From a virus, in the IMG/VR virus record IMGVR_UViG_3300033145_000733, positions 2,525 to 66,524 of that record: a stretch of DNA of 64,000 bases; one strand, written 5' to 3'. Below the pieces are notes generated by a model. It searched no databases, was not told where the DNA came from, and saw only the letters and a program-made list of their open reading frames with translations. Within the stretch, counting starts at the first letter, position 1. The number at the start of each line of letters is the position of its first letter. Of the stretch, positions 367 to 38,441 are shown piece after piece. The translations under genes and the position numbers were made by a program.

Positions 367-906
367 CTAATAATGAACATCTGCTGGAACAACATAAAGG
401 TTCTTTTTGGCTAAACCATCATCATTCCACTTGTTTAAAACGTGGTTGAGGTGCTCTGTATTCCTTATTCCCTCACCGTCTTGGTCATAGAGCCACACAC
501 AAGGTCCAGCATCCTGACCAACTTGATTACAACGAAACTTAAACCAGCTTTCTTCAAATAATTGGTCGTCAGTGTGTGTAGTGATGTATTCCTTTATCCT
601 AGTAAGATTGTCAATAAATGACTGCTTGGTGTCTTCCATTGCTTCTTTTATCATGGCATTCATCTGTGTGGTATAACAATGGAAACGTTCATTACATTCA
701 TTACACTTTTCTGTTCCAAAATCACCGCACACCCTCACTGCTTCTGGTAATTCTCCCCAACGCTCAGTTGCAGACCCACCATCAAAAGTATTAAAGTAAT
801 CAAATGGTCTATCATCTCCACATAAGTTCTCTAATACAGTGTGGGCTTCATCTACTGCTTCTTCTTCATCTCCTGCAAATACAAGTATTTTTATTATCAT
901 GTGCAT
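367..906 (-). CDS. hypothetical protein with internal Cys module (CNECNERFHCYT)
   Basis: 179-aa ORF; shared C-x2-C-x2-RF-x-C-YT motif. Confidence 0.75.
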   Translation of the reverse strand: MHMIIKILVFAGDEEEAVDEAHTVLENLCGDDRPFDYFNTFDGGSATERWGELPEAVRVCGDFGTEKCNECNERFHCYTTQMNAMIKEAMEDTKQSFIDNLTRIKEYITTHTDDQLFEESWFKFRCNQVGQDAGPCVWLYDQDGEGIRNTEHLNHVLNKWNDDGLAKKNLYVVPADVHY

Positions 907-915
907 TTAAACCTC

Positions 916-1131
916 TTACCAACCGTAACCACTTACTAATCTGCCCAACGAACCATCAGGTTTCACTCTACGCCATGACCAAAAATTAGATAAACCATAA
1001 GTACCCCAATATTGACCATCAACCACCTTTACTGGATAACCTTTGGGATGCTGGATAACCTCACCTATTTTCATAGAGGATTTTCCCATGTGTTCATTAA
1101 CTAATTCTTTTACCCAATTTTCAATCATCAA
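916..1131 (-). CDS. hypothetical phage protein
   Basis: ORF within a tightly packed operon, overlapping start/stop with neighbour. Confidence 0.6.
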   Translation of the reverse strand: MMIENWVKELVNEHMGKSSMKIGEVIQHPKGYPVKVVDGQYWGTYGLSNFWSWRRVKPDGSLGRLVSGYGW

Positions 1132-1481
1132 CCAACCTCCCCGACAATCATTGGTGGAGTTAAAATAGTAATTATTTCAGCAAGTGCGTGATTTATGATT
1201 TGCGACTGGTGATAACCATAATTAGGTCTAGCTGACTCTTTCCCCTCGCACCACACATATTCAAGTTGCTTCTTAATTAACTCAAGCTCTGGTTTTTGGA
1301 ACTCTACTGGTAGTATCTCAAACTGCCAAGAGAAATATGTCTTTCTGTCTTTATACTCTGTCCCCTCACCATCAAGAAGTATAAATGCGTACCAATCTGG
1401 ATTATGCTCGTAGTGGTCAATAATAGTTCCTATTTTACCATCTATTGTTTTTACTCTTTCACCTATATGGTATTTCATCAA
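1128..1481 (-). CDS. hypothetical protein, N-terminal SH3/KOW-like beta domain
   Basis: YHIGERVKTIDGKIGTI pattern. Confidence 0.55.
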   Translation of the reverse strand: MMKYHIGERVKTIDGKIGTIIDHYEHNPDWYAFILLDGEGTEYKDRKTYFSWQFEILPVEFQKPELELIKKQLEYVWCEGKESARPNYGYHQSQIINHALAEIITILTPPMIVGEVG

Positions 1482-1774
1482 CCAACCTCCACATATTCCA
1501 TCATTAGTTGTAGTGCCTCATCATAGCTTTTACATTGCTGTAATCTAGTTTGAAATTCCTGAACTAAGTAGCAACTTTTTCTCTTTTTCCGTTCAGTGTA
1601 ACATCTAAATTTACAATGACAATCATCACACCTTTCATCAGTCAATTCAGCCTTTTTAAGAGCTATAATGACTAGTCCAGCGAGATTAAAAACATTACCA
1701 TTTTGCTCTGTCAACTTACATTCTGGTTTCATTTCACCTTCTGGTGGATATGGACAATCCTTCCTTGATGCCAT
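1478..1774 (-). CDS. hypothetical protein with inserted Cys module (CDDCHCKFRCYT)
   Basis: GNVFNL...SYDEALQLMMEYVEV scaffold with the motif in the middle. Confidence 0.7.
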   Translation of the reverse strand: MASRKDCPYPPEGEMKPECKLTEQNGNVFNLAGLVIIALKKAELTDERCDDCHCKFRCYTERKKRKSCYLVQEFQTRLQQCKSYDEALQLMMEYVEVG

Positions 1775-2214
1775 ACTCTCGTCTCTATCAAAATTCGCTT
1801 CACGAATTCACACCCAATAATACTAGGAGTAGAACGTACATGATACATGACAACGTAGCCACCTATCTTACATACTCTTGATGCTTCCGCAGTATACTTT
1901 TTGAAATGAAGTTTACCTGTTCCATACAACTCTACTGATAAATCATTACTATATGGTGGGTCAAGCACTACTAAATCAAATTCATTACCAAACGGCAAAT
2001 CATGTGCATCACAAACATAATCAGGTTCAACATCAGGATTTATGTCACACCGTACACCGAATTCCGCTTTGCCCCCAAATGGATGAAGTATTTTATAATC
2101 ATGCTCATTCATACTAAGCAAGTTTAGAAGTTTCCTCTCAAAGTGCAAAGGAAAACTACCTATGTATTTTGATTTACTTGGTCTTGGTAAAACCCACGCC
2201 ACTGTTTCTATCAT
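1729..2214 (-). CDS. small amino-(N6A/N4C) DNA methyltransferase-like protein
   Basis: LHPFGG motif I-like segment and VVLDPPY motif IV. Confidence 0.65.
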   Translation of the reverse strand: MIETVAWVLPRPSKSKYIGSFPLHFERKLLNLLSMNEHDYKILHPFGGKAEFGVRCDINPDVEPDYVCDAHDLPFGNEFDLVVLDPPYSNDLSVELYGTGKLHFKKYTAEASRVCKIGGYVVMYHVRSTPSIIGCEFVKRILIETRVWHQGRIVHIHQKVK

Positions 2215-2288
2215 TTGCTTTATCTTGCTACCTCATATCCTAGTTTTTTCAATTGTTTAATGTTTAATGCAGTTTCAATCACACATGT

Positions 2289-2639
2289 TTACTCATCCCA
2301 ATTAAACGAATATCTGGTATCCCACCTATAATATTTTAAAGATTTGGTTCGTAAATTATGAATAAGTTTTGGGCACAAAACAGTTGCCTTTAATATCACT
2401 TGTCTAATACCAGATTGCTCACCATAACTATCACTAATTATACTAATTTTACATTTTGCTTTCTTACCACATTTAGTACAATACACACTTATTGTGGGAA
2501 TGGGAACATTAAATTGTATCATTGCTAATTTTGCTTTACGTGTTGCAGAAAATTCCACATCTGGCATAGGATTCGTATAACATACAAATCGTTCTACACA
2601 AGTTTTACAAGGATATTTTGGGCAATCTTCTTTTTTCAT
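2289..2639 (-). CDS. hypothetical protein with N-terminal Cys module (CKTCVERFVCYT)
   Basis: motif in translation. Confidence 0.7.
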   Translation of the reverse strand: MKKEDCPKYPCKTCVERFVCYTNPMPDVEFSATRKAKLAMIQFNVPIPTISVYCTKCGKKAKCKISIISDSYGEQSGIRQVILKATVLCPKLIHNLRTKSLKYYRWDTRYSFNWDE

Positions 2640-2833
2640 ACTTTAAATCCTAATGGTTGCTTTTTCTTACTTGCCTTTGGTTTAACAAAAGTTGGTAAAC
2701 CACATTCAGGGCAGAAACCACTCTTCTTGATAAGCTCTCTTGATTTAGTTGATCCATAGTTGAACCATAACATCATTGCCCAACTGACTATTAAAGTTGT
2801 AAAGCTCGCCGTTCCAAATATTATCCAGAACAT
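2636..2833 (-). CDS. small membrane protein with CPEC
   Basis: hydrophobic N-terminus; overlaps neighbour. Confidence 0.5.
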   Translation of the reverse strand: MFWIIFGTASFTTLIVSWAMMLWFNYGSTKSRELIKKSGFCPECGLPTFVKPKASKKKQPLGFKV

Positions 2834-2849
2834 CTACTATCCATTTACC

Positions 2850-3305
2850 TTACCTCTCCGTAAAACAACGAAATCTTGCTTCACATGTGTTACAATTAGA
2901 ACCAAGTTTAAGTTCAGCAGTCCCACCTGCTAAATTTATCCCATCTACCAGTGCCTTTAATCCAGCTTTGGTTAAATCTTTAATTGTGAGTTCTCTGGGA
3001 AAAGACTCAACAAAATCTTTACTTTCTTTTAACCCCCAATATGTTGCTTCCCTTGCTCTTTTGATGGCATTTATTTTGTTAGGTCCAACATCAACAAATT
3101 TAGCCTGACAGTAATCGTTTGGTACGGGTACATCGTTGAATAGAATAATAATATCCAAGTGATGCAAGTTCGCCTCACCATCTCCTACATGTTTAACAAG
3201 AACTGTATCAATGTCAGGTACTTCTTCAGGTGAGGCTATATCATACTCATAGTAAGACCCAACCTGTTTTTTGGTGCTGATTAGTCTAAGTTTTAATAAA
3301 TCCAT
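2850..3305 (-). CDS. ribosomal protein bL12 (L7/L12) C-terminal-domain protein with C-terminal Cys module
   Basis: GPNKINAIKRAREATYWGLKESKDFVES...LAGGTAELK matches the L7/L12 CTD pattern; ends CNTCEARFRCFTER. Confidence 0.8.
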   Translation of the reverse strand: MDLLKLRLISTKKQVGSYYEYDIASPEEVPDIDTVLVKHVGDGEANLHHLDIIILFNDVPVPNDYCQAKFVDVGPNKINAIKRAREATYWGLKESKDFVESFPRELTIKDLTKAGLKALVDGINLAGGTAELKLGSNCNTCEARFRCFTER

Positions 3306-3472
3306 TCATATGTCTCAATTAACTTTTGTTCTAAACTATCATCTTCTCTATAGTAATTATCTCCTGCTGGATAACAATTACCTAACAATTGACACAACCT
3401 CAAATCGGGGTGCTTAGTCCAAATGGCTTCCACCGTTTTTAATATCCTTTGTATCCTTTTAGGGTCTCTCAT
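3293..3472 (-). CDS. hypothetical phage protein (MRDPKRI...DLRLCQL family); likely start near 3470
   Basis: MRDPKRI...W..HPDLRL.QL pattern typical of small phage proteins. Confidence 0.55.
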   Translation of the reverse strand: MRDPKRIQRILKTVEAIWTKHPDLRLCQLLGNCYPAGDNYYREDDSLEQKLIETYEWIY

Positions 3473-3769
3473 TCTATCCCCTTGCTTATATTTTTTTATC
3501 ACACCTATGACATTTTGCTCTGATACCAATTTCAAGATCCGAAAAAATGTTGAAGCCAATTTTTGAAAGTTGCCTTTTACCATCCTTTTAATTCAATCTT
3601 GCCCCTTGCAGAAATTAAAGAGTTATACTTCTCAACATCAACATTATCACATTCCCCAATATGAACCTGATTTACTATGGTGGGAATAGTAAACTCAATC
3701 TCACCGTCCATAACATCTTCAATGCAGCCCTTGCAAAACTGAACAATCTGAAATTTCATTGTTTCTCCT

Positions 3770-4012
3770 TTATAATTTGTGTCTTTTATGCAAATCTTCC
3801 ATCATTTTATCGTGAAATATTCGTCTTAAATTCCATATTTCTTTGCTAACAAGCGTAAAATTGCCAAATTCATCATTTTCCCAATCTCTGCCACTACTCT
3901 TATTACCACAAGTGCATTCTGGTGGTAACATAACTTGCATAGGGAAAAAGCCCCACTCTTTACCACAATCATTACATTTGATTTTAACGTATAAATTTGC
4001 GTCTATTTCCAT
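3770..4012 (-). CDS. Zn-ribbon-like hypothetical protein (possibly leaderless)
   Basis: CNDC...CTC; ATG 6 nt after TATAAT of promoter 4019-4047. Confidence 0.55.
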   Translation of the reverse strand: MEIDANLYVKIKCNDCGKEWGFFPMQVMLPPECTCGNKSSGRDWENDEFGNFTLVSKEIWNLRRIFHDKMMEDLHKRHKL

Positions 4013-4018
4013 TATCTT

Positions 4019-4047
4019 ATTATACCACAAGCCATGATTAAAGTCAA
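4019..4047 (-). promoter_or_regulatory. sigma70-type promoter with GGCTTGTGG spacer
   Basis: TTGACT-17 nt-TATAAT. Confidence 0.75.
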
Positions 4048-4056
4048 GTTAATCTG

Positions 4057-4455
4057 TTACCTATCCTTATAGATACCAGCCTCACGCAACTGGTTTATAT
4101 CAAGCTCTGCCTCACGTGTAGTCCAACAGACAAATCGCATTTTACAACCATCACACTGTTCTGGATAATTCTTGCACAATATGGGAATTTTCTGCCCTTG
4201 TCTCTTGTTATACTGACCATTGCTTTTGGAGCTAGGAGAATGTTCAACTGCTGTAATAATTCGCCCTACCCCATTTAACGTCAAGCCATCTGTCCTCAAA
4301 GCATCAATGTGCTTACAAGTCCTATTTCTGCGTGTATTGAATATCCAACTGGGACAACTACACGAAAATAGCCCACTTTCATCTACTTTGATAGTGTAGT
4401 GTTTATTCGGGTTTGACTTTGATGGGACTTCTGTCATAAAGTTATACTGTTTCAT
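4057..4455 (-). CDS. SWIM zinc-finger protein with C-terminal Cys module
   Basis: CSC-x(n)-CKH SWIM signature; CKNYPEQCDGCKMRFVCWT. Confidence 0.75.
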   Translation of the reverse strand: MKQYNFMTEVPSKSNPNKHYTIKVDESGLFSCSCPSWIFNTRRNRTCKHIDALRTDGLTLNGVGRIITAVEHSPSSKSNGQYNKRQGQKIPILCKNYPEQCDGCKMRFVCWTTREAELDINQLREAGIYKDR

Positions 4456-4667
4456 TTATTCCCCCTTAATAAATGTCCCTTTATTAAATCTATACCTTTG
4501 CTGGAACACTCATCAATATATTCACTATATGGAATACTCAATATTTCGCCTTGCGTAAAACACCTGAACCTAAATGGACACTTCTCACAAGAAATACAAC
4601 AATGCCAAATTTGGCGACATCTATGATAATCTACATCATAATATGTAATGATAAACCTATCATCCAT
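4452..4667 (-). CDS. small protein with Cys module (CEKCPFRFRCFT)
   Basis: motif in translation. Confidence 0.7.
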   Translation of the reverse strand: MDDRFIITYYDVDYHRCRQIWHCCISCEKCPFRFRCFTQGEILSIPYSEYIDECSSKGIDLIKGHLLRGNK

Positions 4668-5517
4668 TCTTTAGGTGTTCCTTGAACATCAAGGCTGTCA
4701 AACGACCTATCTGTTTGTTGGCATCAGGAGACTCCTTAATTTCTCCTTTTGCCTCACGCATTACATCTTCTATCATCAACTCTATTACTTTACCTGTGTT
4801 CTCAATTTTAACTTCAACCCCATCTAATACGTGCTTCAGCCTCTCGTAAGTTACCCACTCATTAGCGATGGCTTTCGCATCCTCTATCATCTTTATTTTC
4901 TCTGGTGAGATAACTTTTCGTGGTGTGGAAGTTTCTCTAAATTCATCTCGCTTGTGTTTTGAAATTACACGACTGCCATTGTTTAGTGTCACTTCCTCTA
5001 ATGGTCTAATAACAATTCCCTCTCGCATATGACCGACACCAACTCCATTCCGTATTGCCTGAACAGAGTCAGCATCACGTTCCGCATCTAATGCCTCAAG
5101 AGTGCATGGTACTTTCTTGTAATGCACAAACTCAAGACCAAGCTCTTTGGTGAACGCCTCAGCTTTGGGAACACTAAGCCACAAATCTCCTATTTTAACT
5201 TCAAAAGATATGAACATGAGACTATCACCATAAGTCTTCCTCATGCCCTGTAATTTACCACCATAAGCTTCACCGTAAACATGAACACTCTTACCTTTTG
5301 GTAGTGCCATATCTTTAAATCGTTTCTTTAAATCTTCTTCATCAAACAAGGTGCAAAACGTTTGGTAATTTGAGCCACCAGCAAATAGCCCAATATTTTT
5401 GTCAGTCTTATATGATATATGTGCTGATGTGCCATGAATTTTTTCCATAGCATAACACTCTTTATACATCAATATTTGCTGGTCTTTGTATAGATTATCA
5501 ATATGTAAATATGCCAT
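4660..5517 (-). CDS. Rnl2-family-like RNA ligase
   Basis: EKIHGTS (motif I), YGEAYG (III), EGIVIR (IV), ISKHK (V). Confidence 0.8.
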   Translation of the reverse strand: MAYLHIDNLYKDQQILMYKECYAMEKIHGTSAHISYKTDKNIGLFAGGSNYQTFCTLFDEEDLKKRFKDMALPKGKSVHVYGEAYGGKLQGMRKTYGDSLMFISFEVKIGDLWLSVPKAEAFTKELGLEFVHYKKVPCTLEALDAERDADSVQAIRNGVGVGHMREGIVIRPLEEVTLNNGSRVISKHKRDEFRETSTPRKVISPEKIKMIEDAKAIANEWVTYERLKHVLDGVEVKIENTGKVIELMIEDVMREAKGEIKESPDANKQIGRLTALMFKEHLKNG

Positions 5518-5693
5518 TATTTTATGTAACCTCTCTATTTAGGTATTCTCTTGCGTAATTTAGTTTCTTAACCATCAACCTGGCATTATCTTCACATTCT
5601 TTATTACCTTCTAAACCACAATCTGCAACCCAATCCCCATTCTCTTTGGCTATACAAATATGTGTACCATCAGGATATTGTTGATATTCTACC

Positions 5694-6068
5694 TTATATA
5701 TCAGCATTTAACTCCCCAATTAAAATTCCGTATCTATCTTCTTTGCTTGAACCCTGATTATATCTGCCACACACCTTACACCTAAATTTAGTGTTGTTTG
5801 CTAATTGGTGATATGTAACCTTAAACATGCTCTGACAATGGGGACACCGCATTATTCTACATTCTTTTAATGTAAAGAAATAAGGTTGTATTGTATGCAA
5901 TTGCTTTGCCGTTGGGTTATCCATAATCAAGATTGACTCTTTTTTAGTTGTATAACACTGAAATCTTATAGGGCAATGGTCACAATCTTCATCACAATAA
6001 CCATCACCAAGTTCTTCACCACCTAGATAATAACTTACTATTCTCACCCGTTCCCACCCGTTAACCAT
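5694..6068 (-). CDS. hypothetical protein with Cys module plus Zn ribbon
   Basis: CDEDCDHCPIRFQCYT; CPHC...CKVC. Confidence 0.7.
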   Translation of the reverse strand: MVNGWERVRIVSYYLGGEELGDGYCDEDCDHCPIRFQCYTTKKESILIMDNPTAKQLHTIQPYFFTLKECRIMRCPHCQSMFKVTYHQLANNTKFRCKVCGRYNQGSSKEDRYGILIGELNADI

Positions 6069-6276
6069 TCAATTTCTCTAATGCCCACAACATTTCTGCA
6101 CCAGTAGCGGGGCGGATTGTAACACTACCCCCATTAAGGAGTTCTATATTGACCTTGCCCCAATCCCATCTTACCTTAGTGTCTATCTCGTAGATTGAGG
6201 ACATCATAGTTTGGCTTTTATCGTAAAAATCGTTACCTATATAAAATAGATTTTTCATACGTTCCTCACACACTGT

Positions 6277-6513
6277 TTATCTGTTTGTGTAACATTTAAA
6301 CCTATGTTGGCAAGCATCACAATCTGGTAGTTCTATCTCGGTACTAAGTTTAACAGGTTCGGCAATTAACGCATTCTTATTGTGTGTTCTCTGATATGCC
6401 TTACCACCAGATATTGCATAACATTTTTTCGTATATGCTTTGGGTAATAAAATCCATGAGGTTTCAAACCCATTACAAACTGGTACTATCCAAACCTCGG
6501 CTATTATCTTCAT
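6277..6513 (-). CDS. small protein ending in Cys module
   Basis: CDACQHRFKCYTNR-stop. Confidence 0.7.
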   Translation of the reverse strand: MKIIAEVWIVPVCNGFETSWILLPKAYTKKCYAISGGKAYQRTHNKNALIAEPVKLSTEIELPDCDACQHRFKCYTNR

Positions 6514-6833
6514 TATCTCTCAGTGAAGCATTTGAACCTGCTCACGCAGTTTTCGCATTCTCCACTATAATGTATGGCATTTTCACAGATTTTCTTGACA
6601 GGGTAGTAAAAATCTGTACTCCACTCAGCAATCAGTTCTTGACTACTCCTTCCGCTACTGCCACCAGTCTTGTAGACACGAACAATATCCTTACCACTAT
6701 CATCATCGTGGTGACATACAACCTTGGCACCCGTATACCACCCTCTTATGTGACCATTGATACCGCTATCTTTTGAACCCATCCTTGTAGCTTCACCACG
6801 ATTACCTTGAACGTCTGCGTAAAAGTGTGCCAT
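6513..6833 (-). CDS. small phage protein with appended Cys module
   Basis: QGNRGEATRMG...TGGS scaffold followed by CENCVSRFKCFTER-stop. Confidence 0.7.
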   Translation of the reverse strand: MAHFYADVQGNRGEATRMGSKDSGINGHIRGWYTGAKVVCHHDDDSGKDIVRVYKTGGSSGRSSQELIAEWSTDFYYPVKKICENAIHYSGECENCVSRFKCFTER

Positions 6834-6882
6834 TTAATCCCCCACAAAAAATCTGTATATGTTCTTGACAATTCTGAGATTT

Positions 6883-7230
6883 CTACCCATGTTTTAATCT
6901 ACTTAGCAAATAATCACTGCCACGCATCATCGGGATAACCTTTGGAGTAGGGGTAATTATACTTACCCCCCAAACATCCACATCCCCACCACATTTCGGA
7001 CACTGAGCAAAGTCAAGCCTTTCACAAAATTCTTCACAAGCTCTAAGCCACTTGCTCTGATTCAGGTCACTAAAATATTCCACAGCCTCCGCAGTGACCC
7101 CAAGTGCTGTAGGTATGCCATCTTGGTCTTTGACCATAAACATTACACCTTCCAGTAACCTATCCCCAAAGGGGTAGCCATCAACAAGTACGTGGTCAAT
7201 TTTTCCACAACTTTCGCACTCTAGTTCCAT
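6883..7230 (-). CDS. Zn-binding hypothetical protein
   Basis: CESC...CPKC. Confidence 0.55.
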   Translation of the reverse strand: MELECESCGKIDHVLVDGYPFGDRLLEGVMFMVKDQDGIPTALGVTAEAVEYFSDLNQSKWLRACEEFCERLDFAQCPKCGGDVDVWGVSIITPTPKVIPMMRGSDYLLSRLKHG

Positions 7231-7421
7231 TACTCTCCTCTTGATTTTATGTACTTATCCCAACATTCGGCACCGACCACATCATCATCATAACCCTTTT
7301 TTGGCTCATGTTCTTCAATGCTTTCACGTGAGTTGTATTCATGCCCACAGACAGCACATTTTTTACCGCTAAGGCTTAAAGCAACTGTCAACCAAAATAA
7401 TGGATGCTCCATATATTACTC

Positions 7422-7865
7422 CTAGTTACTAATTGTTCTTAGAAAGTCGCATGAACTTCCTTTTGGCAGTCTAATTACAAAACTTGTACCATGTTTTACT
7501 AAAAACTCAGCCATACATATATTTTCTTTATAATCTGGAAGCTTTGACGTTATCTCAATTAACTGAGCTAGTTCATCTGCATAAATAATCACTACTCTTT
7601 CAATGGGTACTTGAAGCATACGAATGCTGCCATCATTAACCTTAATCGCAAACATTATTCCCATACCCCCATGAACGCTACCACCCCACCCTAAGAAATT
7701 TCCGCCAGCACTACCTTGTAACATCGGTATTTCTTTCAATGCAACTAAGTCATAGGGTGCTGTACCCCATGCTTTCACAATCTTCTCTTGCACAACCTTC
7801 GTTGCCATACCACAACCACTTAGTAATGTTAAAATCAGCAAAAGTAAAAATAATAATCTCTTCAT
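7422..7865 (-). CDS. putative lipoprotein
   Basis: MKR, hydrophobic stretch, then LSGC lipobox. Confidence 0.7.
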   Translation of the reverse strand: MKRLLFLLLLILTLLSGCGMATKVVQEKIVKAWGTAPYDLVALKEIPMLQGSAGGNFLGWGGSVHGGMGIMFAIKVNDGSIRMLQVPIERVVIIYADELAQLIEITSKLPDYKENICMAEFLVKHGTSFVIRLPKGSSCDFLRTISN

Positions 7866-8008
7866 TTTTTAATTATCACCTAGTAACCCTTTTAACTCTT
7901 CCAACCTTGTCTTATCTTGTGGCGACATGGTGATAGAACCAACCTGTTCTATTACCACAAAATACTTTTGATATATTGCCACCATTTCTCGCAGAATTTC
8001 TTCTTCCA

Positions 8009-8497
8009 TTACCACCACCTTTTTGCTATTTTTTCATTCCTGTGAAATCTTAGTGGGTCACGCACAAACACTCGGCTTTCACTGGGTTTTTCATGTTGTG
8101 ATGTGTAGCATTGAAACCTATCTGGGCAGCTTTCACAGATTGTCAAAACTTCTAAATTAAGTTTTTCTCTTATCTCCGAATGTGATTTGCCCCTACATTC
8201 CTTACAAAGTGGAACAATAAAATTACAAGTATTTACCTCATCAAATGTTAAACGTTCTATCGTGGTGGGGAATAAATTTACACCTTTAACCAAACCACAA
8301 CAAGCACAAAGTACCATCCGTTCACGTTCTCTTTCATTCTTACGGCAAGATGCACATATTGGTTTTATTACAGTTTTGCCATGCTCCACCATTGTATATG
8401 GGCGAACAGTATCATGGACAAAACCACAAATACTACACCAGCCTATCTTGTGCTTAATTGCTTTTTCATTCGTTGGTATTTGTCCCAATAAAGTCAT
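8009..8497 (-). CDS. multi-Cys protein with Cys module (CESCPDRFQCYT)
   Basis: four CxxC pairs plus the shared motif. Confidence 0.7.
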   Translation of the reverse strand: MTLLGQIPTNEKAIKHKIGWCSICGFVHDTVRPYTMVEHGKTVIKPICASCRKNERERERMVLCACCGLVKGVNLFPTTIERLTFDEVNTCNFIVPLCKECRGKSHSEIREKLNLEVLTICESCPDRFQCYTSQHEKPSESRVFVRDPLRFHRNEKIAKRWW

Positions 8498-8986
8498 TTA
8501 ACTTCTCACCTTTGTAGTCAAACATTTGAAACGTTTATCACACTTCATACAAATTTCAGTTTCACCAAGCGGTATTGCCTCAATGGTTACTCTCAAAAAT
8601 TTACCAGTATTGTGCTTTAATATTTCAGTTATATCCTGAAACTTGTTATAGATTATCATTCCGTAATGGCGTGAGTCGTCTTTAGGAAACATTGGACAAC
8701 CAAGATAGTGATATATTTCCATAAGTCTGCCACGTTCATCGCTGTCAACTTCATCTTCATCCTCACCCACAAATCCTTCAATCTCAACAGGAAGCGTGGC
8801 AATAATTTGACTCTCTGCACACAGTTTCTTTATCTTAATTTGTCTTAGTCGTTCTCTAGGTTCTTGAACCAAGTCTACCTGTCCATTTTTTATCGTGCCA
8901 AGTTTTGACAACTCTTTTTCAAGGGCAGTTATTTCAATATGCATTTCGTTAATCAGTTCAATAGCTTTTTGCCTAGTTTCGTTCAT
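8498..8986 (-). CDS. coiled-coil protein ending in Cys module (CMKCDKRFKCLT)
   Basis: motif near C-terminus. Confidence 0.7.
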   Translation of the reverse strand: MNETRQKAIELINEMHIEITALEKELSKLGTIKNGQVDLVQEPRERLRQIKIKKLCAESQIIATLPVEIEGFVGEDEDEVDSDERGRLMEIYHYLGCPMFPKDDSRHYGMIIYNKFQDITEILKHNTGKFLRVTIEAIPLGETEICMKCDKRFKCLTTKVRS

Positions 8987-8992
8987 TTAGGT

Positions 8993-10696
8993 TTAATCAT
9001 TCTCCATTATGATTATCTTACCAATCTTGGAACTCCAGCCACCAGTATAGTGATTTGGTGTCATTACCCATATAGTAGGACATGGTATCTTTTTTGGATA
9101 AGTCCCTGCCCCATCTGTGCAGTATATTATCCCATCTACTTTTTGTTTTAGTTTGAACGTTTCGCCATTTCCATTCTTGTATACCATCTTGTCCACAAAC
9201 CTGAATACAGGAGTAAAGTCTGTTCCACCATAACCGTAACGCTTTATGCCTTCACTCTTTGGTGGTTTTCTCTTGTATGGCTGAACATGGGTAATATCAG
9301 CATCACATTCCACATGGGTTAAGCTGATGCCAGCTTTGAACATTGCTCCCATTTCTTTCCAGAACATAGCGAATTCTTTATCATCAACACTGCCAGAACT
9401 ATCAGTTGCCACCACAAAATGAGCTTTACGTTCAACTTTGTAGCCTGGAAATACTACAGGAAATCGTCTATTTAGCCTTTTTCTGGTGCTTACAAAGTGC
9501 GAGAATTCACGGAAACCATAAAATCTACGTAATTCAGATTTCCAAGTTATAGTTTTATGTTCAAGACATTCGTCAATAAGACCCTTTAACCAACCTGGCA
9601 TGTATCCCTGAGACTTCTCATTAACCTTATGGACAGCTTTCTTAACCATTTCCTTAATTTTTTCGTGTGCCATTTCCTTGTTATCACTACCTGCTGCCCA
9701 CGCTTGATGGTTATCCATTGGCATTGGTATCTTTGTTCCGTTTACATCTACACCACACCCACTACCAGTTTTTGGTGACTCGGTTTTAGAGGTCTGATCT
9801 CCACCACTGCCATCATTACTCTCTTTTTGAGTGTAGCTACCATCACCCTTACCGCTTCCACCACTGCCACTCTGTTTACCATCACCCTCTTGATTACCTA
9901 AACTATTCTTATCTTTTTTACCAGCACCTTCTTGCCCTTGCCCTTCTTGCCCTTGCCCCTGTCCACTGCCATTCTGCTGACCATCTTGACCCTGACCATC
10001 TTGACCCTCTTGACCCATGTTATCTTTTGCCGCTTTTTCCTGTTTACCAGTAATATTACTCCCAATTTCAATTATGTATTTTGGAATTTTACTCCACAAA
10101 ATATCATAATAAAGCTCAGAAGCCTTTTCACTTTCAAGAGTAATCTTTTTATCCTCAATCCTAAAATTGTGAATATCAAGAGGTTCAAATACATGTGTAT
10201 CAGGGCTGAGTACCATATTACATACTGGACATTTGGTACGAAACTGACCTGATGATGTTTTCCTCACAAATATATTACATTCTGGACACATGCCACCATA
10301 CGGTAGTCCTTTAATATACTGGTTTATCGCAAGGTCATTTGCCAAATTCCAGATATAATGATTACGGTTCTCTACACGTAGTAGGTGCTTATTGAGAATA
10401 TGAAGTATTTCATGCTCAAGAACAGCTATTTTCTCTTCTGCCGTTAACCCCCATGTTTGTGCGCCAGGATTACTTTTGTCGTAATCACCACTATTATAGA
10501 ATTGTCTGTTAATGAATAGATGCGGTTGTAATTCATCACTTATCATCACAGCAAGTGTTGAAATTACTTGCCCCGCACCTACAGTAGACTTGCTATCAAC
10601 GCTGTGTCGCCTAAATTGTTGTAGCAGATGCCCATAAAAATGCTTATGTTGCAATAATAGTTCTATTACTTCTGGCTCAATTAGTTCTTTTACCAT
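8993..10696 (-). CDS. vWA-like domain / HExxH metallopeptidase (DUF2201-like), partner of MoxR AAA+
   Basis: HEILH, N.ANDLAIN, G/Q-rich linker, DSSGS MIDAS, GGTDF, TDG. Confidence 0.85.
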   Translation of the reverse strand: MVKELIEPEVIELLLQHKHFYGHLLQQFRRHSVDSKSTVGAGQVISTLAVMISDELQPHLFINRQFYNSGDYDKSNPGAQTWGLTAEEKIAVLEHEILHILNKHLLRVENRNHYIWNLANDLAINQYIKGLPYGGMCPECNIFVRKTSSGQFRTKCPVCNMVLSPDTHVFEPLDIHNFRIEDKKITLESEKASELYYDILWSKIPKYIIEIGSNITGKQEKAAKDNMGQEGQDGQGQDGQQNGSGQGQGQEGQGQEGAGKKDKNSLGNQEGDGKQSGSGGSGKGDGSYTQKESNDGSGGDQTSKTESPKTGSGCGVDVNGTKIPMPMDNHQAWAAGSDNKEMAHEKIKEMVKKAVHKVNEKSQGYMPGWLKGLIDECLEHKTITWKSELRRFYGFREFSHFVSTRKRLNRRFPVVFPGYKVERKAHFVVATDSSGSVDDKEFAMFWKEMGAMFKAGISLTHVECDADITHVQPYKRKPPKSEGIKRYGYGGTDFTPVFRFVDKMVYKNGNGETFKLKQKVDGIIYCTDGAGTYPKKIPCPTIWVMTPNHYTGGWSSKIGKIIIMEND

Positions 10697-10708
10697 TTAC
10701 TATCCTTT

Positions 10709-10875
10709 CAGTATTAGGTTGGTTGTTAACATTTCCATTTCAAAGCCACGTGAATTAACTTACCTAATACCGACCTTTGGGTAAAGTAGAATAAATCTGC
10801 CTCTGGAACAGCTAAGCCAACAAAGACTTTTCTTTGTTGGAAGTTCGCCTATAGACTTATAGATACTCTACCCAA
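10709..10875 (-). other. candidate structured RNA element between the AAA+ and vWA genes
   Basis: paired arms 10709-10719/10762-10772, 10777-10788/10864-10875 and a perfect 10-bp hairpin at 10817-10840. Confidence 0.55.
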
Positions 10876-10902
10876 TGTCATACTCCCAAATGTAACTGCC
10901 AT

Positions 10903-12090
10903 TTATCCGATGTCACCCTTTCTTGCGTGCTTTAAAATCATAAACAAATCATCACGTTTAAGCAACAGCCGCTCATTCATATCATTGTTTAGAGCAAGGT
11001 CTTTAAGCACCGAGAATGCCAAATCTTCTGGTAGAAGTACAAAGAAATCGCCAAGATTACCGAGTTGCTTCTCGTTATACTTAGTTGATTTGGCGCCAGT
11101 TAAACACTGGTTAATTTCGTCTAGTGTAATTCGTAACAAATCAAATCTAGTATTTCCTTCGCCAGATTCCACCTGTGACAAAACCCTATCCCTAATCTTG
11201 GGGAAACTGTTGAATATTTCAGCCGCTTTAAGTGGTTTGTCCAGTTCGGTTTTAAGAGATTGAATAAAAGCAATAGCTGCCGTTGGACCAATTACCGTCT
11301 CGGCAACCTCTGTCCAGTATTTCTTTGGTATTGTGTTGCCACCCAGAAGTTTGTGTAGAAACTCATAAGAACGTGGAGATGGCGTAATTTCTACAGGAAT
11401 ATCTATTGCATCATTGCCAAGAAATTTAGTATCTGTAGCAATGAAGTCAATAATATCTTGCAACATCCCATATTCACGTGCCCATTTCAACCAATTATCC
11501 GTAGTCAAAGTAAATTTCATGTTGACAAACCTATCTAGGAGAGCAGGGTCAATTTCTTCTACGTTATACTCTTGACCAGTGCCAGCATCAGTTGATGGTG
11601 GATTACAAGCGCATACAATAGCACAATCATCGGGAATTTTATGAGTGTGTATTCTGCGGTCAAGCACAATCTGAAATGCCGCTTGTTGCACATCAAGACG
11701 ACCACGATTAAACTCGTCAAAGAATATGCAACGCTTCTCGCCGTTTGATGGAAACCATGATGGTGCTAACCAAATTGTCCTACCCACTATCGGTATTCGT
11801 GCCTGGTCTTGCTGTTCGCACATCGGACAATAAGCAGTTTTTATGCCAAAACCATATTTAGTTTGACACTTTGGACAGTAATATTCTTGTGCTGGCATTC
11901 CAATCAAATCACCAACCTCAAGTTGCCCAAGTCTAAGGTCAATAACCTCATAACCTAACGCCTCAAACACTTCTCTGGTAATCATACTCTTACCAATACC
12001 ATGTCTGCCCCATAACATCGGGGTTAGGTTGACTTGCGAACACCTTTGTAGTATCAGTTGCACCAGCTCAATGTTTTCCATAAATATCAC
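10903..12090 (-). CDS. MoxR-like AAA+ ATPase with Zn-finger insertion
   Basis: GRHGIGKS Walker A, FFDEFNR Walker B, CACNP sensor, DPALLDRF arginine finger. Confidence 0.88.
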   Translation of the reverse strand: MIFMENIELVQLILQRCSQVNLTPMLWGRHGIGKSMITREVFEALGYEVIDLRLGQLEVGDLIGMPAQEYYCPKCQTKYGFGIKTAYCPMCEQQDQARIPIVGRTIWLAPSWFPSNGEKRCIFFDEFNRGRLDVQQAAFQIVLDRRIHTHKIPDDCAIVCACNPPSTDAGTGQEYNVEEIDPALLDRFVNMKFTLTTDNWLKWAREYGMLQDIIDFIATDTKFLGNDAIDIPVEITPSPRSYEFLHKLLGGNTIPKKYWTEVAETVIGPTAAIAFIQSLKTELDKPLKAAEIFNSFPKIRDRVLSQVESGEGNTRFDLLRITLDEINQCLTGAKSTKYNEKQLGNLGDFFVLLPEDLAFSVLKDLALNNDMNERLLLKRDDLFMILKHARKGDIG

Positions 12091-12106
12091 TCTCCCACTT
12101 TCTTAT

Positions 12107-12135
12107 ATTATACCATAAGCCGTTATTATTGTCAA
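12107..12135 (-). promoter_or_regulatory. sigma70-type promoter with GGCTTATGG spacer
   Basis: TTGACA-17-TATAAT; contains the TGA stop of the upstream ORF. Confidence 0.8.
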
Positions 12136-13032: not shown

Positions 13033-13167
13033 GCTACAATCCTCATTATGCACATTATAAAAGCAAATTGGATACTTGGGTCACACAGAATTGATAGCCT
13101 ATTACGACCATTTGTATTAAGACGAGATAAAAAATTAAACACCGTATAAATCATAATACCTCCAACC

Positions 13168-13243
13168 GAGTCGGGTGGAATGATGCCTTATTAACAGCAT
13201 CCCCCCAGGGTGTCAACTGGGCATCATTTCCACTCCGCAACTC
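13168..13243 (-). other. long imperfect intergenic hairpin
   Basis: GAGTGGAAATGATGCC pairs with GGCATCATTCCACCC; lies just upstream of a GGAGG site. Confidence 0.55.
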
Positions 13244-18579: not shown

Positions 18580-19743
18580 TTATCCACCCGCCTTAAAGTT
18601 ATACACTGGCTTCATAAAGAACTCAATGTCCACCGTCTCCCCGATAGCCCCAATAATTTCATCTTTATCTTTGTATGCCATCGGTGCTTCATCTATAGTA
18701 TTTTGTGTTGCGGTGGTAGTATAAACACCTTCCATTTCCTTTATAAACTCGTCAAGGTCTAATCTCTTTTTAGCTTGGCTTCTGGACATTACCCTTCCTG
18801 CTCCGTGTGGTGCTGATAAGTTCCATTTATTGCTACCTTTGCCAACACCTATCATTACACCATCACGCATATTGAAAGGAATAACTAAACGTTCTCCTAG
18901 ATGTGCCGACACTGCTCCCTTACGGATAATCTTGTCATCAAAGTTGATATAGTTATGGACTGTTTCAATGCCTCTCATATCAAAATCAGTTTTCGCTTCG
19001 AAGAAATTGAAAATTAACAGTCCCGCCATCACTTGTCTGTTCAAACTAGCATATTCTTGGGCTATTTTCATATCATCAAGATACTCTTTGCCACCCATGT
19101 CCATAGGTAGATACTCCAAATCCTTGTAAGCATCTGCCCCCAAAAACATTCTCTTGAGCAGTTCTTTAGCTTTGTTTTGGTGATATGTTGCAACTCGTAA
19201 CCCGAAATTCCTGCTACCAGAATGTATTAAGAGCCAATATTGTCCATTATCATCTTGGTCAATCTCAATGAAATGATTACCACCACCAAGTGTGCCAATA
19301 GAACCTATTACCTTGCTTTCATCTTGTTTCAGGTCATTAGCAAGTGCCAATACTTTTTTACGAAAGTTATCATCAAACATATCTTGGGGTTTTGCTTGGT
19401 TTGCCATCCGCCCACTGGTGCTTCTAATGTTAAAGCCACTTGGAATGTGTGTTCTTATAAAATGGTCTAGGTGTTCAAAATTAACGGTTGTTACATCAAG
19501 TGGGTAAGCATTTACGCCACAACCAATGTCCACACCTACCACATTCGGTATAACATAATCATTCATCTTCATAGTAAAACCAATGCAACTACCAGCACCA
19601 GCATGAGCATCTGCCATAATTGCTATATGTGTCTTAGCAAACGCAGGATGATTGAGAAACGAGTAAATTTGGCTAACAGTTGTCTCGTCAAGGTTATCAA
19701 TCATTATTATTGCCGTATTGTATTTACCTTTAATTGTATACAT
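18580..19743 (-). CDS. rtcB: RtcB RNA ligase
   Basis: MADAHAG, GVDIGCG, GTLGGGNHFIE, IHSGSR, HNY, HGAGR, DEAPMAYK motifs. Confidence 0.93.
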   Translation of the reverse strand: MYTIKGKYNTAIIMIDNLDETTVSQIYSFLNHPAFAKTHIAIMADAHAGAGSCIGFTMKMNDYVIPNVVGVDIGCGVNAYPLDVTTVNFEHLDHFIRTHIPSGFNIRSTSGRMANQAKPQDMFDDNFRKKVLALANDLKQDESKVIGSIGTLGGGNHFIEIDQDDNGQYWLLIHSGSRNFGLRVATYHQNKAKELLKRMFLGADAYKDLEYLPMDMGGKEYLDDMKIAQEYASLNRQVMAGLLIFNFFEAKTDFDMRGIETVHNYINFDDKIIRKGAVSAHLGERLVIPFNMRDGVMIGVGKGSNKWNLSAPHGAGRVMSRSQAKKRLDLDEFIKEMEGVYTTTATQNTIDEAPMAYKDKDEIIGAIGETVDIEFFMKPVYNFKAGG

Positions 19744-19901
19744 TATCTCTCACTCTCTATCAATATTTTGATAGGCGGTGCCCACAATTGTTGCCATTCA
19801 CCATCTTCAAGTAGCAGTGCCTCACCTTGCAACAAAGTATAACACTTAAAACGAACTATACACTTATTACACATGGTATCACAGCTTGCCTGCCGTAACA
19901 C
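19743..19901 (-). CDS. 52-aa ORF missed by the track, with Cys module
   Basis: GTG start; VLRQASCDTMCNKCIVRFKCYT...ESER; TAA overlaps the rtcB ATG. Confidence 0.6.
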   Translation of the reverse strand: MLRQASCDTMCNKCIVRFKCYTLLQGEALLLEDGEWQQLWAPPIKILIESER

Positions 19902-27936: not shown

Positions 27937-27965
27937 ATTATACCATAAGCCGTGTTCAGTGTCAA
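27937..27965 (-). promoter_or_regulatory. sigma70-type promoter with GGCTTATGG spacer
   Basis: TTGACA-17-TATAAT; includes the stop of ORF 27962-28111. Confidence 0.8.
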
Positions 27966-28111
27966 CTGTTCTGTTTTAGCCTAAAGAACGCAGTAAAGCA
28001 TCTTGGCACTGAGGTCTTAAAAGCCTTACGATATGCTACTTTATTAGATTTAATGCCCGCATCCTTTCGTGAACAGTAGCTTCTCTCTGGGCACACGGTA
28101 CATTTATCCAT
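27962..28111 (-). CDS. 49-aa ORF missed by the track, with degenerate Cys module (CTVCPERSYC)
   Basis: MDKCTVCPERSYCSRK...KQNS; start overlaps the upstream stop. Confidence 0.5.
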   Translation of the reverse strand: MDKCTVCPERSYCSRKDAGIKSNKVAYRKAFKTSVPRCFTAFFRLKQNS

Positions 28112-31296: not shown

Positions 31297-31893
31297 TTAG
31301 CCACCTCCTTTCTTATTTTCTTTCAGTACCACTTTAATTCTTTTAATTACGGCAGTTATCTGTTTTCTGTCTAACAAACCACCTAACTGCCTGTAAAATT
31401 TTCGTGGGTCTTTGGCTACATCCTGCATTTTCTGTTTAATCTTAGTTGGCAATTCAACGTAGTCAAAATCATCTGCATATCTATAATCACGAAACGAATA
31501 AGCATTATCAATTGCCCACACTCTACCACTTGGCTTAACCAGCCAGTTACCACCATGTCTATCAGTGTTGCAAATAAGATAATCAAACATTTCCAGTAGT
31601 GGCGGTTGGGGTTGGCATGGACGTTTGCCACGCACCCATTTCATAGCAGAGACTACTTCGCCATCCACCAAGTGAAGTATGGTAGATGGGACTAAGCCTA
31701 ATCCAAGCATTTCGTTGATAATGTATGCCGCTCTTTCGTGGTATGGAGAATGGCTCTCATCATTATCTCCTGTTGGCGACACACCTTTCAGCCACACAGG
31801 AATACCATCAATTTTACCCTTTCTGCCCCTGAACAAAGCTGTTGGTGTGCCAGGTGTTGGTTTTACTGTTTGCAACACTGTTTGTGCAACCAT
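31297..31893 (-). CDS. PI3/4-kinase-like (HipA/SCO1664-like) kinase
   Basis: ERAAY, LGLVP, FDYLICNTDRH.GN, WAIDNAYSF. Confidence 0.8.
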   Translation of the reverse strand: MVAQTVLQTVKPTPGTPTALFRGRKGKIDGIPVWLKGVSPTGDNDESHSPYHERAAYIINEMLGLGLVPSTILHLVDGEVVSAMKWVRGKRPCQPQPPLLEMFDYLICNTDRHGGNWLVKPSGRVWAIDNAYSFRDYRYADDFDYVELPTKIKQKMQDVAKDPRKFYRQLGGLLDRKQITAVIKRIKVVLKENKKGGG

Positions 31894-36595: not shown

Positions 36596-36615
36596 ATATA
36601 TATAGAGGTACAAGT

Positions 36616-36776
36616 ATGAGAAAGACTCTGTATGTTATATTGGGTGCAAGTACTCTTTACCTTGTCATGGACATTGTGATGAATGTATCGTGCGGTTTAA
36701 GTGTTATACTACAAAAAGTTTGGGGTTAGATATTACTGAGAAAGAGATGGGGCTTATAAATGAAAACAATTTATAG
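36616..36776 (+). pseudogene. frameshifted small gene carrying Cys module (CHGHCDECIVRFKCYT)
   Basis: ATG at 36616 is one base out of frame with the motif (36663-36710); the motif frame has no ATG upstream of the motif. Confidence 0.45.
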
Positions 36777-37170
36777 TACTGGGGCTTTTGGAGAGCCATA
36801 TAGGATTGAAGTAAGTAATGATTTGCTGAATGAAGTCATCTTTGCTCAAGAACAACTTAATACTATGCGGTGGGAGTGTGAGGTCTATTTGCCCGTACCC
36901 ATCGTTCCATTGAATGTTGATAAACATCTTAATGCTGAGATAGTAGTAAGAAAAAATTCAGTTTATATTTGCATGGAAGGTCCAGATGGAAAGGAACTAA
37001 TGTTAGATGACAAAGACTTACTTGACATACCTGATGTGTACGTTAGTAGAGATTTTGAATTTTCGCTATCAGACCATGTTTTTAGCTTAACGTCACGTGA
37101 CATAGACATGATTGCTACTTGGAAAGCACTTAAACAGAGAAAGTTTGAGGATTCTAATAAAGTATATTAA
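36760..37170 (+). CDS. hypothetical protein
   Basis: 136-aa ORF. Confidence 0.6.
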   Translation: MKTIYSTGAFGEPYRIEVSNDLLNEVIFAQEQLNTMRWECEVYLPVPIVPLNVDKHLNAEIVVRKNSVYICMEGPDGKELMLDDKDLLDIPDVYVSRDFEFSLSDHVFSLTSRDIDMIATWKALKQRKFEDSNKVY

Positions 37171-37609
37171 ATATTTTTGTGTTTGTGCGTAGTTTAAAGT
37201 GGTCTGCCAGGTATGTTTTCATTAGTGATCTAATAGGGGAGATATTATGAAAATAAGATTATACAGTAATCCCAATGGTACAGGATGGTTAGGTTGGGTT
37301 GACAACTGTAAGAATCAAGTAGTAGCGTTTATTCGTCTTGATGGTTCTTTAGTTTTTGAGTGGTAGGTAGTTTTTAACTGGTATAGGAGTTGTAATGTTA
37401 TACATAGTAGGAAAAGTAAATCCTGAGAATTATTTAGAGTGGGAATTTATGGGTATATTCTCAACAGAAGAATCGGCGGTTAAAAATTGCATAACTTGGG
37501 AACACTTTGTAGGTCCAGTAGATTTGGATGTAGCTCTTCCACAAGAACAAATTTTGTGGGAAGGTGCTTATTACCCAATAGCTGATAAGTACTACGAAGA
37601 GAATTAAAT

Positions 37610-37945
37610 GGGGGCGCGTGGTTTCGACAGGGTTACTATAAACACATAAGCAGGTAGTCTTTAGTGAGTAGACTATAAACAGCACCAAAAAATAAGTGCA
37701 AAACTTAAATTATTCGTAGTTCTAAAAGAAGGACTACTCTTCCTCGATGATGCTCCTGTTACGGTTCTTGGGGAAGACTGTTTAGTAACAGAAAAACCTG
37801 GTACACCTCTAACAGTATAAACTAGAGATGCGCTCAACGTTGAAATTGTTGTTTGATAAACGTTGCTAAGAAATAAACTAATATACCTGTAGAAAATGTG
37901 CTAAAGGTTATTCTGGACGGGGAGTTCGACCCTCCCCCGCCTCCA
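37610..37945 (+). ncRNA. ssrA: tmRNA
   Basis: 5' GGGGGCG..GGTTTCGAC; 3' GGACGGGGAGTTCGAC..CGCCTCCA; 7-bp acceptor stem with G3:U70; resume context ATAAGT-GCA and tag ORF 37698-37820. Confidence 0.9.
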
Positions 37946-37970
37946 CATTATTATATAAAAAAATTATAAA

Positions 37971-38021
37971 AAAATGAGTTCAATATAATAAAATGAGTTC
38001 AATATAATAAAATGAGTTCAA
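37971..38021 (+). repeat. 19-bp tandem repeat AAAATGAGTTCAATATAAT (2 full, 1 partial)
   Basis: direct reading. Confidence 0.85.
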
Positions 38022-38314
38022 GACATATAATAGTTAGAGATGGTTTAGGTAATTATCATTATTCATTCTGGTGTGATTCAAATAGTTGTGCTGATTGTAT
38101 GTTAAGATTTCAGTGCTTCACGTCTCGCTCAGGGTCAATAACGGCAATATTTCCAACAGATGTTATAGATGAAAGAGTGAAAGAATTAAGAAACAAGTGT
38201 TGGAGGTTGAGAGATGGAAGTTCAATCACTAGAAGTATCCACCCAGAAAATTTTACCAAGGGGAACTCTTCCAAGAAGGGTTGGGTTGGCACCAGGTTAT
38301 ACACAAAACTGTAG
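38012..38314 (+). CDS. hypothetical protein with Cys module (CADCMLRFQCFT)
   Basis: motif in translation. Confidence 0.7.
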   Translation: MSSRHIIVRDGLGNYHYSFWCDSNSCADCMLRFQCFTSRSGSITAIFPTDVIDERVKELRNKCWRLRDGSSITRSIHPENFTKGNSSKKGWVGTRLYTKL

Positions 38315-38441
38315 CATGGGGTGTGATTCGTGCTACCTTAAATTTTTATGCTTCACTACACGTGGAGAGATTATATTAAGTTACAACTATTTAAAGGAGT
38401 ATCAAAGGGATAAGGCGAAGAGGCAGGGACATTTAAAATAA
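38214..38441 (+). CDS. small protein with Cys module (CDSCYLKFLCFT); true start uncertain
   Basis: motif in translation; overlaps the previous ORF. Confidence 0.6.
   Translation: MEVQSLEVSTQKILPRGTLPRRVGLAPGYTQNCSMGCDSCYLKFLCFTTRGEIILSYNYLKEYQRDKAKRQGHLK

Follow-up and report, generated by a model that had tools for sequence, protein, structure and literature searches.

The 64,000-nucleotide stretch of viral DNA analysed here (the window) is part of the 66.5-kb IMG/VR record IMGVR_UViG_3300033145_000733 (CheckV completeness 36%) and encodes about twenty otherwise unrelated proteins sharing a 12-residue motif, C-x2-C-x2-[RK]F-x-C-[YFWL]-[TS]. Judging from the sequences of these carriers and their homologs, the motif is probably the core of a small, self-contained and portable metal-binding unit, called here the module, and the spacing of its cysteines makes a [4Fe-4S] cluster the most likely cofactor. 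In the proposed arrangement, three cysteines would come from the invariant stretch and the fourth from a position 1 to >100 residues off, on either side, and the four would most likely hold one metal centre, with Zn(Cys)4 as the main alternative to [4Fe-4S]. Over evolution, the unit would have joined more than 100 unrelated non-structural proteins of the clade, either capping a terminus or inserted as a loop. What it confers on its carrier could be stability that depends on the cofactor, responsiveness to iron or oxidants, or a shared binding surface to which R, F, T and the aromatic residue would contribute. Searches of the literature returned no description of the motif in phages.

Copies of the motif in the window and in related phages

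A six-frame search with a regular expression gives 19 exact matches in the window, 16 on the minus strand (670 to 19871) and three on the plus strand (36675, 38087 and 38322), besides one variant with Val for Arg (15267-15302) and one degenerate copy, CTVCPERSYC (28073-28102). Every open reading frame (ORF) named as a carrier in the initial annotation, which was made from the letters of the window, holds a copy. Both of the frames that it considered missed by gene calling contain the motif too; in one of them (36606-36776), however, no ATG, GTG or TTG precedes it in frame. A different frame has an ATG at 36616 and reads MRKTLYV... from there, similar to the starts of homologous proteins. The two facts together make a frameshift likely at this place, whether real or introduced by the assembly. 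The degenerate copy reported at 27962-28111 is likewise present, but the gene status of its 49-aa ORF is uncertain, and no homolog of it was found by BLASTP in the ORF sets of the window and five relatives. The last copy ends at 38357, in agreement with the claim that none lies past 38.5 kb, and the part of the window beyond this point, in which the six-frame search finds none, houses the ClpP, dUTPase, RNR, terminase, portal and sugar genes.

An origin of the motif by chance, as a DNA repeat or through faulty annotation has practically nothing left to commend it and is already refuted by the following controls. A set of 133 ORFs contains 15 copies, whereas 2000 within-protein shuffles, a comparison set in advance, gave a mean of 0.0005 and a maximum of 1; the bare spacing C-x2-C-x5-C occurs 17 times in the same set and 0.44 times in shuffles. 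A DNA pattern matches the window 12 times and its reversed version does not match at all, and the reversed pattern is also absent from all five relatives. The variation of synonymous codons between copies, already remarked upon initially, turns out to follow genome-wide usage: the fixed residues of the motif show no codon preference of their own (Cys is TGT in 62-73% of cases vs 69% genome-wide, and Arg is drawn from all six codons), and the 45-nt flanks of the window copies share a mean ungapped identity of ~28%. It is therefore the peptide that is conserved, not the DNA, and a DNA-level mini-element is ruled out. Orthologs at 30-60% identity retain the motif. After masking of the motif, the best pairwise BLASTP E-value among 21 window carriers is 0.13.

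Five relatives were fetched whole, namely G001 (134 kb), G002 (138.6 kb), G003 (153 kb), G005 (134 kb) and the 55-kb fragment G004. The window and G002, which has terminal repeats and is 100% complete, are syntenic. Counted in frames of at least 45 aa, exact copies number 19 in the window, 45 in G001, 46 in G002, 40 in G003, 31 in G004 and 22 in G005, 203 in total, and with simple ORF calling the carriers make up 9-23% of the ORFs in each of the six records, or about one gene in six. In G002, where the median carrier is 109 aa long, no copy falls at 10-60 kb, where large genes, presumably for structure and packaging, are grouped. Of 199 carriers, 143 hold the motif internally, 41 at the C-terminus and 15 at the N-terminus. 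When it is masked, they fall into 127 families, 82 of them singletons, and one family alone receives two carriers from the same genome. The portability proposed from the window, with the module at either terminus or inside otherwise unrelated proteins, thus extends to the relatives.

A profile built from 20 window modules was compared with 1.84 billion representative proteins, as had been suggested, and gave 36 matches at E<=0.001. Small proteins in which the motif is exact account for 35 of these, two of them holding two modules each; the remaining one (P0020) is a eukaryotic C2H2 zinc-finger array sharing C-x2-C-x3-F. A scan of IMG/VR returned 45 contigs, ten with 2-42 protein-level copies in the fetched stretches and 35 with one match. 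Since its DNA pattern was limited to AGR codons for Arg and TGT for the third Cys, further members may have been missed. A scan of GTDB genomes with a restricted DNA pattern found at least 120 stretches, with one match per stretch among the matches listed; 80 stretches examined all held single matches, 69 of them in frames shorter than 100 aa, so that most lie in short frames that are non-coding. A cellular origin or mimicry, which was considered as well, receives no support from these isolated matches. Window positions 45408-51793 have no DNA match in a cultured-phage collection, and the terminase of the window has one distant match in cultured phages (22.6% identity). The clade bearing the module appears to consist of uncultured phages of ~135-150 kb, for which no close cultured phage was found.

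Some small carriers (50-100 aa) resemble each other beyond the motif: this subset has a common N-terminal M-x-R-x-hydrophobic strand followed by C-x3/4-C-D-x-C-x2-RF-x-C-[YF]-T, after which come a hydrophobic strand and an E-W/F helix, and it may represent a founding mini-protein family. A different case is a 150-aa carrier of G002 (112682-113134, locus L096:17682-18134), in which a weak DNA_pol_A match (E 2.5e-4) precedes the module. Its stretch TGRLqtitPNiQNIP resembles, by eye, a motif of family A DNA polymerases, and the metagenome proteins P0018 and P0048 look akin to it.

The fourth cysteine and grafts onto known folds

The consensus of 224 distinct instances is C-[DEN]-x-C-x-x-R-F-x-C-[YFW]-T-x-[RK], with no fixed residue further out. 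Within it, F is found in 100% of instances, R in 91% (K in 9%), Y, F or W in 94% and T in 93% (S in 7%). The Val-for-Arg copy is best described as family-specific, as C..C.S[VFA]FNC[WL][TA]GNVDDG is kept in five orthologs of ORF 14907-15602. It had been claimed that a further cysteine is usually present upstream at variable spacing. The additional cysteine proved to be more regular than that, none of the 199 carriers having three Cys only, and its spacing is indeed variable; its location is not always upstream, either side of the motif being possible. Cysteine counts of carriers peak at 4, 8 and 12 (4:63, 5:38, 6:16, 7:14, 8:34, 9:17, 10:5, 11:2, 12:8, 13:2), whereas non-carriers have a smooth distribution. 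The extra Cys is conserved in 23 of the 24 families with at least three members. In the 24th, the bL12 family, in four orthologs a distal Cys stands where the domain starts, and two others, which lack it, have a Cys at -4, so the fourth ligand appears to have moved rather than vanished. Where a family also has a SWIM motif or zinc-ribbon pairs, a single "odd" Cys is conserved beyond those sites, and the two-module metagenome proteins P0018 and P0019 have one extra upstream Cys per module (in P0018 as C-x10-C-x2-C-x5-C, twice). Because no carrier stops at three cysteines, because the counts peak at 4, 8 and 12 and because families keep the extra Cys, the unit would be a Cys4 metal site composed of one invariable stretch with three cysteines and a further Cys whose place is free.

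Alignment with outgroup homologs, a check proposed at the outset, shows the module to be absent from the counterparts of three carriers (PHROG 1933, PHROG 5927 and bL12). The PHROG 1933 homologs of Mammaliicoccus and Bacillus phages have 65-72 aa and match ORF 1478-1774 on either side of the module at 38-46% identity; all three cultured-phage homologs leave a clean 22-column gap at ER-CDDCHCKFRCYT-ERKKRKSC. Among metagenome homologs of the same ORF (27 matches, 21 aligned), seven have the insertion and 14 have none, and the inserted piece of the carriers supplies its own fourth Cys. The second case is ORF 6513-6833, where 57 mycobacteriophage records match residues 1-72 alone, the 34-residue tail with its Cys and motif being extra. 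In ORF 2850-3305, the Pfam Ribosomal_L12 model stops at residue 133 and the motif begins at 138; motif and Cys66 occur in 17 of 17 bL12-type homologs at 45-68% identity. In the clade itself, a C-terminal module is present in some members of one family and lacking in others, and a second family has a different four-Cys arrangement in its place. Bacteria and other phages have functional versions of the grafted folds that lack the module; its role is therefore presumably to give the carrier something new and not just to prop up a weak fold.

Known cysteine units and the question of the metal

The possibility that the module is a known domain was rejected, as no significant Pfam or PDB-sequence match to it was obtained. 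Searches of 20 module segments against Pfam gave four families, each on one segment (best E 0.0032); on whole carriers, the matches (bL12, and weak zinc-ribbon or SWIM ones) lie outside the module, while the two on the module itself (DDE_Tnp_1_6 and DUF7635) are weak and below the cut-off. The check for a curated domain, called for in the initial annotation, thus returned none. A 34-column alignment of the module found two matches among PDB sequences, with E-values of 0.48 and 1.4. The model of the 52-aa carrier had no Foldseek match in the PDB, and a search of the ESM Atlas gave sub-threshold leads (Ral family, 0.87; own model pLDDT, i.e., predicted local distance difference test, 0.46).

Several Fe-S proteins resemble the module in spacing. 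The cluster loop of EndoIII/MutY is C-x6-C-x2-C-x5-C, WhiB-like proteins have C-xn-C-x2-C-x5-C in a four-Cys domain followed by a G[VI]WGG turn, and FNR likewise combines a three-Cys C-x2-C-x5-C with a distant Cys ligand. The last three cysteines of EndoIII/MutY and WhiB are spaced as in the module and a basic residue follows the second; in the module, however, the fourth Cys stands at a free distance on either side. The exact C-x6-C-x2-C-x5-C noted initially in ORF 4057-4455 is indeed there, but it is the only window carrier with this spacing, which 14 of 224 instances have, so the fixed arrangement of EndoIII/MutY does not apply to the module. No HhH-GPD match was obtained on the carriers, and no Whib match at E<=0.1 on carriers or at E<=10 on module segments. 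The auxiliary cluster motif of SPASM/twitch domains, CX2CX5CX3C, needs a Cys three residues past the third one, where the module has R or K in 52% of the 224 instances and Cys is not common; Pfam detects no radical-SAM protein among the carriers. Zinc knuckles, ribbons and C2H2 fingers are also small Cys metal units spread over many unrelated proteins, and C2H2 shares C-x2-C-x3-F with the module. They are built of 2+2 ligand pairs, whereas the module is 3+1, with no His pair and no His at ligand positions.

A close parallel is the [4Fe-4S] "iron staple" of Cas4/AddB, for which PMC3466216 gives a ligand set of C-x2-C-x5-C plus a distant Cys, so that the Fe-S spacing cited in the initial annotation is borne out for this group. 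In both units, the distant Cys would pin two parts of the chain together. In Cas4, AddB and Dna2, the staple sits in a RecB-like PD-(D/E)XK nuclease, while the module is portable and found on 127 masked-motif families; no PDDEXK or Cas4 Pfam match was obtained on 20 window carriers or ten large G002 carriers. The clade does have a single PDDEXK_1 gene, encoding a separate protein, in four of five records searched (it is absent from the incomplete window record). The staple of this nuclease, an N-terminal Cys plus CDNCYFIEHC or CARCYFLEEC, has the C-x2-C-x5-C spacing of the module but lacks its R-F-x-C-[YFW]-T signature. Another comparison concerns phage bL12 domains (Mizuno et al. 2019, PMC6375957), which, like ORF 2850-3305, place the bL12 C-terminal domain in varied polypeptide contexts; the main text of that source mentions cysteine a single time, among its mass-spectrometry methods, and describes no Cys tail, whereas all 17 homologs considered here end in the module. 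Taken by its sequence, the module would act like an iron staple, Fe-S cluster loop or zinc knuckle, yet it lies outside those families.

As to the metal, an Fe-S cluster is in our estimate somewhat favoured, zinc is a less likely but serious candidate, and anything else is improbable. Radical-SAM enzymes are encoded in three of the five relatives; the hosts must therefore already load Fe-S clusters onto phage proteins. Several observations weigh against the main reading. AlphaFold2 gives pLDDT <50 at residues 139-151 of the bL12 carrier, the bL12 domain of which scores ~90, and a mean of 61.6 for the 52-aa carrier. NifU_N (IscU-type) and IscA-type scaffolds are each encoded in none of the five relatives, and at least 40 extra Fe-S clients would be a heavy load on host assembly, a better fit to zinc. 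The near-invariant R, F, aromatic residue and T would exceed the usual needs of ligand geometry, and selection beyond metal binding may therefore be at work. Finally, a nuclease with such a four-Cys arrangement was crystallised with Zn, as PMC3466216 reports, and the spacing therefore leaves the metal undecided.

This crystal form and the missing scaffold genes also speak for the alternative that the module forms a Zn(Cys)4 knuckle with a structural role, which would require no assembly machinery and would stabilise small fast-evolving phage proteins as zinc ribbons do; we rate it as possible, though not likely. Many carriers hold ordinary CxxC..CxxC pairs or a SWIM-like motif besides the module, so the proteome already uses zinc-type sites, and the sole match of the profile outside phage-like proteins was the C2H2 array. 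Yet zinc sites of the two-knuckle type differ from a 3+1 pattern, and each Pfam zinc-finger family matches at most one of 20 module segments. Among one-off variants of the motif, four alter a Cys position, none to His, though Cys/His exchange is common in zinc sites (a weak argument). Three ligands within ten residues plus a distant one are the pattern of the Fe-S staple (PMC3466216), not that of two zinc knuckles.

A further reading adds to the metal-site readings rather than excluding them, and the likelihoods given here accordingly do not sum to one. It holds that all carriers bind, through the R-F/aromatic-T face, to a single hub (a host factor, ClpP or MoxR/DUF2201), or that loss of the cluster brings them under iron, oxygen or redox control, e.g., by Clp-dependent removal of apo-proteins; we find it rather unlikely. 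The grafting onto folds that are autonomous elsewhere (the bL12 C-terminal domain, PHROG 1933 and PHROG 5927) argues for an added function of this kind, and it would account for the near fixation of the non-ligand residues over the 224 instances; the same residues could equally form the hydrophobic and charge shell of a metal centre. The window encodes ClpP (40174-40779), and two core carriers trail MoxR and DUF2201 in all five records covering the region, but gene order is the only tie to these two proteins. In an extended and still more doubtful form, the module would be a labile Fe-S knob serving as a proteome-wide cofactor tag, with the R-F/aromatic-T face as the handle for a shared partner and with iron or oxidants switching the accessory set. 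Candidates for this partner would be nucleic acid, a protease, or a machine for cluster delivery or remodelling, of which the neighbouring MoxR and DUF2201 proteins could be an example. Very improbable, in our opinion, is a role without metal, either as a redox-active CxxC or as a site that is recognised or modified (for example by cross-linking of Cys, or by the PI3/PI4-kinase-like protein of the phage phosphorylating Thr). The conserved Thr/Ser at position 11, a kinase-like gene at 31297-31893 and the radical-SAM genes of the three relatives could be taken in its favour. Nevertheless, G002, with its 46 copies, has no radical-SAM match, and an obligatory fourth Cys at variable distance together with Cys counts rising in steps of four is what a four-ligand site predicts, not a linear modification site. 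A portable metal site, probably of the Fe-S type, remains the reading that we prefer.

Carrier genes, their neighbourhood and significance

The frames with the motif are collected in Table 1, together with the two adjacent non-carrier genes. The order MoxR, DUF2201 protein, carrier A, carrier B and 49-aa ORF (8009-12090 in the window) is kept in the window, G001, G002, G003 and G005.

Table 1. Frames with the motif and the neighbouring MoxR and DUF2201 genes (window positions; negative numbers give the place of the Cys upstream of the motif)
Feature	Position	Strand	Motif copy and remarks
Carrier ORF, 179 aa	367..906	-	CNECNERFHCYT, internal, 670-705; Cys 8 residues upstream; orthologs in 4 records keep Cys at -8
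Carrier ORF, 98 aa, PHROG 1933 family	1478..1774	-	CDDCHCKFRCYT, 1595-1630, within a 21-23-residue insertion bringing its own downstream Cys
Carrier ORF, 116 aa	2289..2639	-	CKTCVERFVCYT, N-terminal, 2574-2609; Cys at -5; second C-x2-C-x5-C at 2451-2480
Carrier ORF, 151 aa, bL12 C-terminal domain (residues 71-133)	2850..3305	-	Cap CNTCEARFRCFT-ER-stop, 2859-2894; Cys66 invariant among homologs
Carrier ORF, 132 aa	4057..4455	-	CDGCKMRFVCWT, 4120-4155; spacing C-x6-C-x2-C-x5-C; N-terminus SWIM-like, CxC..CxH (Pfam SWIM under its cut-off)
Carrier ORF, 71 aa	4452..4667	-	CEKCPFRFRCFT, 4554-4589
Carrier ORF, 124 aa	5694..6068	-	CDHCPIRFQCYT, 5949-5984; Cys at -4; C-terminal zinc-ribbon-like CxxC..CxxC besides
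Carrier ORF, 78 aa	6277..6513	-	C-terminal CDACQHRFKCYT-NR-stop, 6286-6321
Carrier ORF, 106 aa, PHROG 5927 domain (residues 1-71)	6513..6833	-	34-residue C-terminal extension with fourth Cys and CENCVSRFKCFT-ER-stop, 6522-6557
Core carrier B, 162 aa	8009..8497	-	CESCPDRFQCYT, 8102-8137; 13 Cys, several CxxC pairs; second gene after DUF2201
Core carrier A, 162 aa	8498..8986	-	C-terminal CMKCDKRFKCLT, 8516-8551; sole extra conserved Cys in LGCP; first gene after DUF2201
DUF2201_N metallopeptidase + DUF2201 VWA-like protein, non-carrier	8993-10696	-	HExxH, CPxC..CPxC, G/Q-rich linker, DxSGS
MoxR-type AAA_5 ATPase, non-carrier	10903-12090	-	With the DUF2201 gene, directly upstream of carriers A and B
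Carrier ORF, 231 aa	14907..15602	-	Derived motif CDNCKSVFNCWT, 15267-15302, Val for Arg
Carrier ORF, 114 aa	15795..16139	-	CNTCKLKFRCYT, 15969-16004; Cys at -8
Carrier ORF, 115 aa	16187..16534	-	CDKCDGRFQCFS, 16442-16477; Cys at -11
Carrier ORF, 89 aa	16531..16800	-	N-terminal CSSCPERFKCFT, 16732-16767; Cys at -2
Carrier ORF, 68 aa	16782..16988	-	C-terminal CKVCTFRFRCWT-IK-stop, 16791-16826; 4 Cys in total
Carrier ORF, 52 aa, GTG start	19743..19901	-	CNKCIVRFKCYT, 19836-19871; Cys at -4
49-aa ORF, gene status uncertain	27962..28111	-	Degenerate copy CTVCPERSYC, 28073-28102
Open frame	36606..36776	+	CDECIVRFKCYT, 36675-36710; no in-frame ATG, GTG or TTG before the motif
Carrier ORF, 100 aa	38012..38314	+	CADCMLRFQCFT, 38087-38122; Cys at -5
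Carrier ORF, 75 aa as called, true start uncertain	38214..38441	+	CDSCYLKFLCFT, 38322-38357; Cys at -4

Some other features of the window are worth recording. The last two carriers, 38012-38314 and 38214-38441, overlap by ~100 nt in different frames. Just upstream of the former lies a tmRNA (37610-37948, plus strand), full-length according to Rfam (RF00023, 106.6 bits, E 1.2e-40); with ARAGORN, neither tRNA nor tmRNA was detected in the window. A look-up of sequencing runs listed none. Interleaved with the carriers on the minus strand are genes for RNA ligase (4660-5517), Ku (13581-14324), ATP-dependent DNA ligase (16985-17914) and RtcB (18580-19743), which look like an end-joining and RNA-repair set. 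The PI3/PI4-kinase-like protein at 31297-31893 (minus strand) was recognised at E 2.8e-8, and the product of 25290-26675 (minus strand) has a HATPase_c_3 match just under the Pfam cut-off (23.7 vs 25 bits).

Small metal sites as such are familiar; one exact 12-14-residue signature on more than 100 unrelated proteins of a single virus clade has no known precedent. The natural pairs of proteins with and without the insertion are ready-made experiments. If the metal is zinc, the module would be a minimal transferable fold-or-dock unit, of interest to protein design, and with either metal the motif is a sharp marker of an unstudied phage clade. If it is an Fe-S cluster, each infected cell would contain ~20-45 new Fe-S clients, a load relevant to the way in which viruses exploit the iron and the cofactor assembly of the host, and to a possible dependence of infection on iron or oxygen. 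The cofactor tag outlined above, if true, would be a new kind of global protein-level control in a virus.

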